Below, piece after piece: positions 37,963 through 45,486 of a DNA stretch of 64,000 bases. Made by a program: the position numbers and the translations under genes. The notes below the pieces were generated by a model, which saw nothing but the letters and a program-made list of their open reading frames with translations, was not told where the DNA came from and searched no databases. This DNA is from Candidatus Poribacteria bacterium (lineage in GTDB: Bacteria > Poribacteria > WGA-4E > PCPOR2b): assembly GCA_965207095.1 (NCBI GenBank), contig CBDBMC010000001.1:74357-138356 (forward strand), read 5' to 3'. Numbering within the stretch: the first letter of the stretch is position 1; every line of letters begins with the position of its first letter.

Positions 37963-38745
37963 TTACTCCGCATCGCGCGCACAGCGGAAACCGACCTGCA
38001 AGCCACGATAGCCCGGGGGATACCATGACCGATAACTACACTCCAGCTGAAAGCGAAGACCGCCCCACGCGCCACCGCGCAAAATACGGAAGTCGCCCGT
38101 TGCTTTATCATACCTATTCGATACCCATTCCGAGATGTTACTCGCACAATCTTGTAACCCGTACGGACTCGCGCCCGACGGGAAACTCCCTACTGGCAAA
38201 GTACGGGTGCTATCCGCCATACTATAACCGATTCGAGAAAAGTCCATCTCATCGCCCCATGGATATCGCCGCCCTTCTGTGCCACGTGCTGCTTTCTCCC
38301 ATTCCGCTGATGTAGGAAGCCGTTTATCTGCCCAACGCGCATACGCTGAGGCCTCATACCAACTCACGCCCACTACCGGTTGGTCAGGACCGCTATAACG
38401 GTTGCGTCCCAAACCAAGCGGGCGGTCTATACCGTTGCTTTGGATGAACGACCAGCCCACTTTCGACCACAACGATTCCGTTTGGTAACCATCGGCAAGG
38501 ATGAACTCTTCGTATTCTCGGTTCGTTACCTCATACACATCGATAAAGTATGCTGGCAAATCAACCAAAGCGGCGGCAGAACCGTCTCCCATCTGAAATT
38601 CGCCGGCGGGTATCAAAACCATATCCGCAGCCGGGTCCGCTCCAGCCGACTCTGAATCTGAGGCTTCTAAGCCGACACTCAGCATTCCCATAAAGATAAG
38701 CGATACCGTTATTAAAAAACTACTATCGTTTTTTTGCTTTTTCAT
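37963..38745 (-). CDS. Formylglycine-generating-enzyme (FGE)/sulfatase-modifying-factor-family protein, secreted
   Basis: 261 aa from MKKQKNDSSFLITVSLIFMGMLSVG signal; GSFPSGASPYGLQDCASNISEWV...RILRGGAW FGE-sulfatase signature. Confidence 0.8.
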   Translation of the reverse strand: MKKQKNDSSFLITVSLIFMGMLSVGLEASDSESAGADPAADMVLIPAGEFQMGDGSAAALVDLPAYFIDVYEVTNREYEEFILADGYQTESLWSKVGWSFIQSNGIDRPLGLGRNRYSGPDQPVVGVSWYEASAYARWADKRLPTSAEWEKAARGTEGRRYPWGDEMDFSRIGYSMADSTRTLPVGSFPSGASPYGLQDCASNISEWVSNRYDKATGDFRILRGGAWGGLRFQLECSYRSWYPPGYRGLQVGFRCARDAE

Positions 38746-38808
38746 GTGTATCACTGCTCCCATTTCCCCTTGCCTGCGAGGGGGCAAGGAAAGTATCAAC
38801 TATCAACA

Positions 38809-43280: not shown

Positions 43281-45324
43281 TCAAAGAATGTTCAAAAACA
43301 ACCAAGTTCCAAGCCCAAATAACAATACTCCCGTTCCTAACTTCACCGGCATTAGATGCCGTTGCAGCACACCACCCAGTTGCATCGCAGTTGTTCCCCA
43401 ATACACAAACCCAAATACTACTAGCAGTGGCACGATAAACATCAGATTATACAGAATCAGGTACGCTAAGGCATGACCCCGCATCCCCTCAACGCCCATC
43501 ACAAACGTAATCGTTGGCAGATAGACCTGACCCGTACAGACCAGCTCCAACGCAGAGATCGCAAATCCAATGACCAACGCACCGATAATTACTCCCGATG
43601 TTCGCGTCTGCTCACGGATAACTTTGTGGATGCGCTGCTTCAACGACTTGGGTAACTGCAATGTAATCTCTTTTACCTTTCCCTGCTTTGCTTTATAAGC
43701 ATCGTACAGACTCAAAAATGCCAGCGCAAACGTCCCAATTGCGGCAAGCAGGTAGACACACTTGGCAAGGACCGAAAACTCGTTGAGGAAGGAGAGAAAC
43801 TTGAGCAGCCCCATCCCCAACAGCAGGTACGTTACAAACACGGCGGCGGCGAATGCGCCACCGGCGATGAGCATCTCCTTCCTTCCTCTCCCAACAAGAC
43901 TCATGTAGGAGATGAAGAATACGATCGTGGCGAAGGCACACGGATTGATCCCGTCAAGCAACCCCGCGCCTGCAACAGCTAACGTGCCGAAGGCGTTAAA
44001 GCGTTGAACGATTCCGTCTGACGCTTCCCCAGTCTTGGCTTCCGCTTGGGGCAGACGAGACGCAACCCCTGTCTGCAAGTATTTCTGGATAACCGCTTCC
44101 AGACGTTTTTCATCGACGTCGTCAAGCAGATATTCATCGCCGATGAACACCGCAGGTGTGGTAAGTCGCTTCACTTCGGGAACCTCGTAGAGAGCGCCCA
44201 TCGCTTCAAGCAGTTCTCGGCTCTCTTTTGCATACTTCAGCTCAACGACAATCTGTGGATATTTCGTTTTGAGCCGTTTCAAAATCTCGCTGGCTCTCGC
44301 ACATTTCTGACATCCCCGTTTGTGGAAGTAGGTGATATAGATGGCACGATCATCCGGTGGGCTCCCTTGCTGGTCAAATCCATCCTCCTCGGATAGATTG
44401 TCGTAGAGTGTCAGTAGCATTTCAAGATCAGCGTCGGGAGTAATCCGTTCCGAGACCGAGAGGTGCTGATTCTGTCTTGAAACCACTTGCCTATCGGGGT
44501 CAAGTTCAATCTCCAAAACACCAACCGCTTCACCTTTAGTGAGGTTAGTGACAATCGTTGTACTTCCCACGGCAATCGGAATATCCGAGGCAATTTCCGA
44601 GGATTCATTCTTGGCGAGGATGAGAACGGATAGCCATGGAACTTTTTGAGCGAGTGTACGCGCTTCGTCTTCCTCCCCGTAAAACACCCCTACTACCGCG
44701 TCACTTTTCTCTATGATTTCTTTTGACAAAGCCTCCAGTGCTTCTGTCGGCTTGGATAGAGCCATACTGGGGTTATAGGCGGTAATTTCCGCTTGGTATG
44801 ACGAGGATATTAAGTTAATGACGGCGACTTTTATCTGTGTGGTTGTACTGTGAATGATATAGGGTGCAAATGGACTTGGAGAGGAAACGGAGAGATTGGT
44901 GCAGATAACAGGTAGGTTGGGATGATTCCCGTAAAGAGCAGAGAGGGTGTCTGCGGGGAGGGATAGATCCTGAGGACCAAGACAGAGGGCATCATAATCC
45001 ATCCCGCTCAACGCTTCGAGGGCGATCTGGCAGATAAGTTCATTGTTGGGGTTAGCGGAATCGAGAATGTTGCCTGCGTGCAGGTTTAGGGCATCCAAGT
45101 GTTTGTCACGCAGGGACTCAATTATCGTATGGCGGCGGGCTAGTCCACCAACCTGCTCGGCACCGCAGCCGTGTAGCCCAAGCAACCCTTGTTCCTCCCC
45201 AGAATAGATCAGGGTCAGTGGAGATGGAGAGTCTGCGACGACGTGAGCAGAGGGTAACAAACACCCAAGTACAACGAGGAAACCGATTTGATATAATAGG
45301 TACGGAACGCTACGGTTCATCATA
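43281..45324 (-). CDS. Thiol:disulfide interchange fusion protein: signal peptide, degenerate metallophosphatase/5-prime-nucleotidase-like periplasmic domain, thioredoxin-fold CxxC (GCQKC), DsbD/CcdA transmembrane domain
   Basis: 680 aa from MMNRSVPYLLYQIGFLVVLGCLL; YITYFHKRGCQKCARA; TM region with INPCAF and LVCTGQVY cysteine pair typical of DsbD-beta. Confidence 0.7.
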
Positions 45325-45486
45325 ATAGCTTCCCTTTTGCACTTGTTAGTACCCAGGTGTAACCATTTTACTGATTGCACTCACAATCAGTTGTTACTTA
45401 ATTCTCTGACTTCTGTACTTTCGTGTTGAACCAAACCACAGAAATGGGGGAAACGTAGAAGAAAAAGTCCATAATTATTCCTTCTG

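Follow-up and report, generated by a model that had tools for sequence, protein, structure and literature searches.

A stretch of 64,000 nucleotides from Candidatus Poribacteria (hereafter the window) carries on its minus strand a cluster of seven co-directional genes, which extends from 45320 down to 36773. Two of the genes encode small cysteine-rich peptide precursors, and a third, g5, encodes a protein with a C39 peptidase domain that is free of any ATP-binding cassette (ABC) exporter. Double-glycine (GG) leader processing is classically tied to cytoplasmic C39 domains on ABC exporters. In this cluster such processing has, with a probability of about 0.6, moved outside the cytoplasm and become coupled to Sec export and to dedicated thiol-redox proteins. 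A first-pass annotation, made by a model from the letters alone, had reported the seven open reading frames (ORFs), and all were found where it had placed them; its end point at about 37141 is that of an ORF, but the last gene, g7, is frameshifted and continues to 36773. The genes of the cluster are as follows.

43281-45320, minus strand: g1, 679 aa; signal peptide, 5'-nucleotidase/UshA-like domain, glutaredoxin (Grx)-like domain and six transmembrane segments (6-TM)
42697-43161, minus strand: precursor A, 154 aa; signal-like segment, GG-type propeptide and 12-Cys core
42159-42617, minus strand: precursor B, 152 aa; paralogue of precursor A
41389-42132, minus strand: g4, single-pass membrane protein with a coiled coil; probable start at M18 (42081)
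38809-41319, minus strand: g5, 836 aa; LolA/LolB-fold domain, C39 peptidase domain and three Ig-like domains
37963-38799, minus strand: g6, protein of the formylglycine-generating enzyme (FGE) fold with an N-terminal signal or anchor; probable real start at ATG 38745
ORFs 37141-37923 and 36773-37228, minus strand: g7, single-pass membrane protein, frameshifted

Precursor peptides and the C39 protein

Precursor A comprises a signal-like segment (aa 1-32; 43066-43161) that ends in PAEA, a GG-type propeptide (aa 33-53; 43003-43065) that reads ...LDMEEMSQIAGA and ends in IAGA, and a core with 12 Cys (aa 54-154). Precursor B shares 54% identity with it and also has 12 Cys in its core. In both, the hydrophobic N terminus is followed by ...LDMEEMSQIAGG/GA, and the leader DNA of the two genes is duplicated at 85% identity. 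The earlier description of two 12-Cys precursors with a signal-like N terminus and a GG leader is thus confirmed, with GA in place of GG in precursor A. Lys or Arg stands near the N terminus of the signal-like segments, a hydrophobic stretch follows, and PAEA or SAEA closes them; in every member of the precursor family the n, h and c regions end in AxA. An AAGGAGG Shine-Dalgarno sequence lies 6 nt ahead of the ATG at 43161; hence, the hydrophobic N terminus of precursor A is evidently translated.

The leader of precursor B reads M(-15)TVL(-12)DMEE(-8)M(-7)SQI(-4)AGG, and the general pattern is M/L at -15, L at -12, E at -8, M at -7 and I/L/F at -4, followed by GG or GA. The recognition motif of ComA and LahT consists of hydrophobic residues at -15, -12, -7, and -4, then GG, GA, or GS (PMC10885120), and the double-glycine leader motif present in all precursors agrees with it. 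Among 17 family members, mean pairwise identity is 86% in the propeptide, 64% in the signal, and 42% in the core, or 33% in the core when Cys are left aside; at the level of sequence, a conserved leader joined to a variable core is the usual precursor pattern. The signal retains invariant M1, F4, S7, L10, L23, L24, and A30, and the core (around 100 aa) retains 12 invariant Cys, which, taken by themselves, would form six disulfides.

The precursor family is small, with only 13 representative clusters at E<=1e-3 among 1.84 billion proteins, and its most distant members retain an MK-rich signal, the motif L(S/T)xSEMxxIxG(G/A), and a Cys-rich core. Matches of the leader to hidden Markov models (HMMs) are all weak and sub-threshold, and they fall solely on GG-leader families, namely TIGR04149, TIGR01847, lantibiotic leaders, and BlpC. 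For the core, no relative was found in Pfam, NCBIfam, or the PDB: the precursor profile matched nothing in the PDB at E<=10, and the isolated core and leader gave nothing usable against Pfam at the same threshold. The variable cores and the presence of several clusters per genome suggest that the products are toxins or signals.

The C39 domain of g5 (aa 365-485; 39865-40227) matches Peptidase_C39 (PF03412) at E=1.2e-21 over aa 369-485, above the gathering score of Pfam. In a phmmer alignment, C370, H444, and D460 align to the catalytic triad of PCAT1; C370 and D460 are invariant, and H444 occurs in 19 of the 20 g5 homologues. The C39 assignment and its Cys/His dyad, on which the first-pass annotation had leaned, therefore hold, and the fold appears intact as far as sequence and structure prediction can tell. 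In an AlphaFold2 (AF2) model, g5 also possesses a LolA/LolB-fold domain (aa ~50-330; 40330-41172) and, in its C terminus (aa 530-836), three Ig-like (HYDIN/PapD-like) domains; LolA-fold and Ig-like domains are typical of the envelope. The first Ig-like domain corresponds to a DUF1573 match (Pfam E=3.4e-20; aa 531-629; 39433-39729). DUF1573 had been annotated as repeats, but only this single match was found, and the LolA-fold domain, for which an isolated search against Pfam at E<=10 gave nothing usable, had been overlooked.

The DUF1573 domain carries an invariant C572-x-C574, and it is argued that this CxC is probably redox-active because selenoprotein forms of DUF1573 have UGC at that site (PMC9312934). 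In a low-GC uncultured bacterium outside the Poribacteria (locus L014, 135-2493), a LolA-like secreted protein of 308 aa and a C39-DUF1573 protein of 475 aa are encoded by separate adjacent genes, which supports a functional link between the two parts; no precursor peptide is visible on that contig. There is no ABC_membrane or ABC_tran match in g5, and the NCBIfam models for PCAT transporters, which fuse a C39 peptidase to an ABC exporter, match only its peptidase part (38-52 bits versus cut-offs above 500). The NCBIfam model for FapD (NF058616) has a cut-off of 330 bits, and g5 reaches only 23.2.

Only one hydrophobic segment is present in g5 (aa 11-31), with K3 and R10 before it and ALWA-ADDF after it, and AxA-like ends follow this segment in the homologues as well. 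For these reasons, the rest of g5 is predicted to be extracytoplasmic, the C39 domain included, in line with hydropathy and the positive-inside rule. The reading of g5 as a single-pass membrane protein is therefore right as to the single segment, but the AxA-like sites suggest that it may be a cleaved soluble periplasmic protein. A TonB-dependent receptor and sorting domains of the type IX secretion system (T9SS) are encoded in the window; the organism therefore has an outer membrane, and 'periplasm' is the correct compartment.

Topology also bears on a conventional explanation, in which g5 has a reverse anchor that holds the C39 domain inside the cell and an ABC transporter encoded elsewhere exports the peptides. 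PCAT-type C39 domains are indeed cytoplasmic in all well-studied bacteriocin systems (PMC10885120), and the topologies of g5 and the precursors come from a reading of hydropathy, charge, and AxA sites. Nevertheless, in g5 and the precursors alike, positive residues precede the hydrophobic segment, acidic residues follow it, and AxA-like sites are present, while the LolA-fold and the DUF1573/Ig domains with their CxC are envelope folds. Nor was a transporter found nearby. Pfam scans of 30 larger ORFs of the window revealed no ABC transporter; for a further eleven ORFs of at least 229 aa (277-13015 and 56100-62974, including a 1927-aa ORF at 277-6060), which lay outside those scans, the sole cover is a crude search for Walker-A and LSGGQ motifs across all 64 kb, and it returned nothing. 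No ABC or PCAT gene adjoins the cluster in 10 annotated related loci; in locus L011, an ABC exporter that could be cited for cytoplasmic processing lies 7 kb upstream, but unrelated genes intervene and it has no C39 domain. Processing inside the cytoplasm is thus very improbable.

Conservation among Poribacteria

All g5 homologues come from Candidatus Poribacteria. The precursor, C39-DUF1573, and g1 genes co-occur in around 14 clusters in shuffled gene order, and these also keep the FGE-fold protein and the coiled-coil membrane protein. Conservation of the neighbourhood, proposed earlier as a check, is therefore borne out for the peptide genes, which are kept even beside protease paralogues of only 27-40% identity. 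Loci L001, L002/L005, L003, and L006 contain the whole cluster: an activator, g1, one or two precursors, one or two g4-like genes, g5, g6, and g7. Loci L009, L010, and L012, whose g5 proteins are 38-40% identical, retain g1, precursor, g4, g5, and g6, with leaders reading ...MTV(L/M)S(M/L)(E/Q)EME(S/L/H)LAGG. In L013, a precursor is present together with BlaR1-like M56-redoxin fusions instead of g1.

The 6.15-Mb genome of L004/L008 contains three clusters, including L015 and L016, in which gene order is shuffled and a PMT_2 gene is added; the precursor cores there are unrelated, with the same signal and a ...LSD(E/D)xMxxxLGG leader. The gene for a PMT_2 membrane protein (GT-C, protein O-mannosyltransferase-like) follows the C39 or FGE gene in L015 (14873-16699), L016 (14660-16492), and L019 (11959-13785), which hints at periplasmic glycosylation of the peptides in these variants.

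In three of three reverse look-ups, which started from nothing but the peptide profile, this neighbourhood was reached again. The distant precursor P0178 pointed to a full cluster, L019, of which L020 has a partial copy, and the distant precursor P0174 to a TARA marine scaffold on which the C terminus of g1, a precursor, and the N terminus of g5 lie side by side. A filter combining signal, GG motif, and at least four Cys, applied to 5712 candidate ORFs from around 330 kb, gave matches solely beside C39 genes. The system so far appears restricted to Poribacteria.

These comparisons also bear on whether the peptides might be ordinary Sec-secreted small proteins, with a coincidental or vestigial likeness to GG-leader precursors and a C39 domain that cuts another substrate, such as the coiled-coil proteins or itself, as is suspected for FapD. 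Such an explanation would accommodate the three clusters (L004/L008, L007, and L011) that keep g4, C39, and FGE genes with no detectable precursor, the C39-DUF1573 protein of L014 with no visible peptide, the FapD substrate that has no canonical GG leader, and the sub-threshold scores of the GG-leader HMMs. It is, however, quite unlikely, as the -15/-12/-8/-7/-4/GG pattern is retained across precursors with unalignable cores, and peptides combining signal and GG motif were found, among the 5712 ORFs filtered, solely beside C39 genes. Among the three clusters concerned, L004/L008 and L007 are of the M56-redoxin type, and L011 instead carries a PAS-containing sigma-54 activator. In L004/L008 (3104-8980) and L013 (4781-8116), g1 is replaced by one or two large proteins that combine a BlaR1-like Peptidase_M56 domain, TPR, and an AhpC/TSA redoxin, with a BlaI-like repressor nearby; the fusions are possible redox-sensing signal transducers.

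Redox and accessory proteins, regulation and genomic setting

The N-terminal region of g1 (around 300 aa after the signal peptide; about 44463-45251) is a 5'-nucleotidase/UshA-like domain, with a match to the NCBIfam UshA_like model at 5.7e-29 and to PDB 5'-nucleotidases by profile at 6.7e-9. This domain is degenerate, its metal ligands being replaced (GD by GN, and GNHEF by GPQDL), and it keeps an invariant Cys52. It is followed by a glutaredoxin-like domain (Pfam E=4e-7; about 44130-44336) with the CxxC pair C337/C340, and by a 6-TM domain (43284-43988) with Cys in TM1 (NPC461) and TM4 (VC595TGQ). C461, C595, and C337xxC340 are invariant in 23 homologues, and the positive-inside rule, applied to positively charged loops, predicts that the N-terminal domains are periplasmic. 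The g1 ORF as listed begins at a GTG at 45380; its orthologues (679 aa) begin at the ATG pair at 45320-45325. Compared with g5, the g1 family shows far stronger conservation (70-90% identity) and has more members (>447 matches), with several copies per genome.

The first-pass annotation had seen in g1 a thioredoxin-DsbD fusion. The nucleotidase-like domain had been overlooked, and g1 matches no DsbD model in Pfam or NCBIfam and no DsbD profile of the PDB; the profile search of the PDB with the g1 alignment returned 5'-nucleotidases only, and no CcdA or DsbD. As in DsbD, CcdA, and ScsB, a periplasmic thioredoxin-fold CxxC is joined to a membrane domain that has one invariant Cys in TM1, preceded by Pro, and another in TM4, and, as in Escherichia coli DsbD, the cytoplasmic loop before TM4 contains (I/F)TLQLPxSLxxR. 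In contrast to these proteins, the Grx domain of g1 precedes the TM domain and an extra degenerate 5'-nucleotidase-like domain is present. With plain hhalign settings, g1 and E. coli DsbD match only over this 24-residue loop; under relaxed settings, they are collinear over 211 columns with both TM Cys aligned, at P=0.015 and a probability of 3%.

A hypothetical protein on the Roseburia plasmid NZ_CP135163 (L018, 5545-7053), with two thioredoxin-like domains and a g1-type 6-TM domain (NPC in TM1, FLCAGQ in TM4), shares the Grx and 6-TM part of g1 (24% identity, 89% of the query, tblastn 3e-11), and thus the g1-type membrane module also occurs outside Poribacteria. This homologue matches DsbD_2 at 1.7e-4, with 22 bits against a cut-off of 24.9. 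Taken together, g1 may work in the manner of DsbD and CcdA—a tentative likeness that stops short of proven family membership.

The 278-aa ORF of g6 matches FGE-sulfatase in Pfam at 1.1e-53 (182.9 bits), as the first-pass annotation had it, and its nearest solved relatives are the C-terminal domain of EgtB, CalU17, and SUMF2, with SUMF1 also among the PDB matches. It contains three Cys and no C-x4-C copper-binding pair (no C-x(3-6)-C at all), the comparison being made with the position of this pair in SUMF1; a conserved [CS]x[PA]xR (CxPxR) motif was looked for in the precursors, and none was found. On both counts, g6 is not a canonical formylglycine-generating enzyme. In 12 Poribacteria loci, g6 adjoins the C39 gene or lies within two genes of it.

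The g4 protein is predicted to cross the membrane once and to expose a long helical or coiled-coil region outside the cytoplasm; it has no Pfam match. In most related clusters, its orthologue directly precedes the C39 gene; in L015, L016, and L019, the two are separated by a precursor gene, or by an FGE-like gene and a precursor gene. The g7 protein, with a single pass and a long helical ectodomain, has no family assignment. Its frameshift lies near 37150-37230, and the reading continues to 36773 in another frame; judged by BLASTP against the 379-aa protein of L001 and the 374-aa protein of L003 (orthologues span 374-394 aa), the split reflects either a pseudogene or an assembly (homopolymer) error. 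In the proposed reading, g6, g4, and g7 are conserved accessory proteins.

Two regulatory features accompany the cluster.

45489-45755, minus strand: promoter element, with a sigma-54 box and upstream palindromes
48630-49601, plus strand: sigma-54 activator, or bacterial enhancer-binding protein (bEBP); Pfam Sigma54_activat 5.6e-62 and HTH_8 5.3e-11

The -24/-12 box TGGCATGTTAATTGCT lies at 45490-45505, around 170 nt upstream of g1, with palindromes TTAGCAAC-N-GTTGCTAA upstream of it at about 45590-45650, and the sigma-54 motif is kept directly upstream of the g1 orthologues in L001, L003, L009, L010, and L012. The whole element, some 270 nt in length, is present in three copies in the window (36120-36385, 45489-45755, and 47241-47518), all of which have a perfect minus-strand -24/-12 box (TGGCATG-N4-TTGCT) with palindromes upstream. 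The copies delimit three minus-strand operons, of which the main cluster is one; the second (47215 to 46014) encodes a 269-aa TM protein and a 126-aa secreted 4-Cys protein, and the third (35986 to 34513) a 94-aa ORF and a 340-aa TM protein. The three operons together resemble a small regulon under sigma-54 that comprises secreted and membrane proteins. The bEBP possesses AAA+ and HTH domains only and no sensor domain (PspF-like), its orthologue flanks the cluster in L001, L002, and L003, and it is the probable regulator of the cluster. Other related clusters carry PAS-containing sigma-54 activators (L015 and L019), an extracytoplasmic function (ECF) sigma factor (L016), or a BlaI/BlaR1-like pair.

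Regulators of this kind raise the question of whether the cluster is instead an envelope module for redox or metal stress, with Cys-rich proteins that buffer or sense thiols or metals such as Cu, a C39 domain that performs regulated stress proteolysis, and g1 and the redoxin fusions handling reducing power. The sensorless PspF-like activator, the ECF sigma factor of L016, and the BlaI/BlaR1-like M56-redoxin fusions of L004, L007, and L013 are all of stress type; thiol-redox domains occur in every cluster, CxC and CxxC pairs occur among the 12 Cys, and the Grx domain of g1 has weak, non-significant PDB matches to ScsC-type copper-resistance proteins. A buffer protein, however, would have no need of a GG-leader motif, which lies in the propeptide, the most conserved part of the precursors; moreover, cores that are 33% identical without Cys and that vary from 8 to 14 Cys between paralogous clusters look more like diversifying secreted effectors. 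A stress module is accordingly considered unlikely.

A scan for sigma-70 promoter-like sites gave 14 in the window, with no excess over shuffled sequence (mean 15.2, sd 4.2). Terminator-like sites numbered 21 against a shuffled mean of 13.5 (sd 3.6), around 2 sd above it, with none placed so as to delimit the operon or the precursor genes. Searches of the window found no Rfam family and no tRNA. Intergenic repeats lie upstream of the sigma-54 activator, namely a perfect 65-nt direct repeat with its copies 5 nt apart (47816-47880 and 47886-47950); an 80-nt pair with 74% identity lies at 47542-47621 and 47722-47801.

The cluster is flanked on one side by citryl/succinyl-CoA synthetase-like genes (32256-34230; CoA_binding/Ligase_CoA and ATP-grasp_2/Citrate_bind) and on the other by an HpcH/HpaI citrate-lyase-like gene (49646-50512), with identical synteny in L001. 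Because of these flanks, the cluster appears to have been inserted among genes of a reductive-TCA-like set. At 34178-34797 and 36439-37134 lies a direct duplication (85-96% identity) of sequence from two genes: the ATP-grasp gene (citryl/succinyl-CoA synthetase beta-like), of which it covers the 5' end, and a TM-protein gene, of which it covers the 3' end. As the g7 orthologue abuts the ATP-grasp gene in L001, the interval at 34.2-36.6 kb represents an additional module that was inserted here. Further away (26209-29849), cohesin/dockerin, Laminin_G_3, FlgD_ig, and Por_Secre_tail (T9SS sorting) domains occur in two large secreted proteins, and hence the organism probably has a type IX secretion system. 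T9SS cargo was rejected as an identity for the cluster proteins, none of which has a Por_Secre_tail domain; a phage-defence system was also rejected, PADLOC having returned 0 matches for 10 proteins.

A proposed pathway and its relation to known systems

The core of the first-pass proposal—Sec-type export of Cys-rich precursors with GG leaders, and an extracytoplasmic C39 domain with no ABC exporter—was supported by every test run, and none of the three outcomes that the annotation had named as refuting it turned up. The cluster, under sigma-54 control, probably produces secreted mini-proteins rich in disulfides, whose leaders would be removed in two steps after they have left the cytoplasm. 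Sec would export the precursors through their N-terminal signal peptide, which would be cut at AxA or retained as a temporary membrane tether. This would leave a propeptide of around 21 residues with a canonical double-glycine recognition helix, which is shown at the level of sequence. The secreted or anchored LolA-C39-DUF1573 protein would then cleave after GG or GA to free a core of around 100 aa, whose 12 invariant Cys would be oxidised and shuffled into disulfides. Candidate folding helpers are g1, with its Grx-like CxxC and its 6-TM domain with two intramembrane Cys, and possibly the CxC of DUF1573; g1 may also protect the catalytic Cys of g5 from oxidation in what is an oxidising compartment.

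Several observations weigh against this pathway. The precursor is undetectable in the three Poribacteria clusters named above (L004/L008, L007, and L011), and the TIGR01847 match is confined to precursor B, at 12.9 bits versus a cut-off of 15.7 (E=0.14). Within g5, Arg replaces the catalytic His in one homologue, the residue at Cys -6, where an oxyanion-hole Gln is expected, varies among homologues (S, E, T, or Q), and the Pfam C39 match starts only at profile position 12; topology was judged by eye from hydropathy, the positive-inside rule, and AxA sites. The g1 protein has no match to DsbD_TM (PF02683), DsbD_2 (PF13386), or CcdA in Pfam or NCBIfam, with the membrane domain searched at E<=10, and its AF2 model is unusable (pLDDT of 50, and below 50 in the membrane domain). 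No outer-membrane export step is evident.

Among known systems, the PCAT/AMS transporters (ComA, PCAT1, LahT, and CvaB) are fusions of C39 and ABC exporter that cut double-glycine leaders, and g5 has the protease fold and the leader logic in common with them. It differs in having no ABC transmembrane or nucleotide-binding domain, with none nearby; in the position of its C39 domain behind a signal peptide and between LolA-fold and Ig-like domains, where it is predicted to be extracytoplasmic; in the additional Sec-type signal of its substrates; and in its variable oxyanion residue. A closer parallel is FapD of the Pseudomonas functional amyloid system, a Sec-exported C39 protease that is active in the periplasm and is not fused to an ABC transporter; its authors describe the periplasmic C39 class as uncharacterised, and the FapD substrate has no canonical motif (PMC5557850). 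Like FapD, the C39 protein g5 is free of an ABC transporter; its hydropathy, charges, and AxA sites fit a Sec signal that would place the C39 domain outside the cytoplasm. FapD, however, is a single-domain protein from the fapA-F amyloid operon, whereas g5 is multi-domain, lies beside Cys-rich GG-leader peptides, and is accompanied by no FapF-like pore; no fap genes were found near the cluster in ORF and Pfam scans of the window. The first-pass view that C39 domains are normally cytoplasmic therefore holds for PCATs (PMC10885120) but not for FapD, a proven periplasmic C39 protease (PMC5557850).

With class II bacteriocins, microcins, and GG-leader RiPPs (ribosomally synthesised and post-translationally modified peptides), the precursors share a conserved leader, a variable core, a double-glycine site, and several paralogous precursors per locus. 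They differ in their larger core (around 100 aa and 12 Cys) and in the Sec signal ahead of the GG leader, and the cluster contains no immunity gene of a known family, no ABC exporter gene, and no recognised RiPP tailoring enzyme. Periplasmic C39 enzymes are absent from a review of RiPP leader proteases published in 2023 (PMC10885120). A literature search, albeit not exhaustive, found no account of DUF1573-C39 proteins or of precursors with a Sec signal and a GG leader, and a similarly non-exhaustive search on Poribacteria and bacteriocins gave no description of this system. The pathway had been called undescribed; the pairing of Sec signal and GG leader does appear so, whereas the periplasmic C39 protease itself has a precedent in FapD.

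If correct, the proposed pathway would uncouple GG-leader cutting from ABC export, with Sec acting first and a multi-domain secreted protease cutting later. FapD is so far the one periplasmic C39 protease to have been studied, and its class would gain a candidate substrate with a canonical motif that can be tested; genome miners would be warned that GG-leader peptides can occur in the absence of a PCAT. Functions would also be suggested for DUF1573 (CxC) and for the widespread Poribacteria family of nucleotidase-like/glutaredoxin/6-TM proteins, and a family of disulfide-rich products of around 100 aa would be predicted in an uncultured phylum.

A further proposal, joint in that it assigns a role to each part, is more speculative and on balance doubtful. 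The LolA-fold domain would capture the precursor signal, the C39 domain would cut at GG, the CxC of DUF1573, recharged by g1, would catalyse the disulfides, and the FGE-fold protein would modify the product. The conserved signal of the precursors would then not be merely discarded, and the cluster as a whole would amount to a previously undescribed type of self-contained peptide factory in the periplasm. Were this so, its disulfide-rich mini-proteins, whether toxins or signals, would represent a new bacterial class, and DUF1573 and the UshA-like/Grx/6-TM family would receive their first functions.

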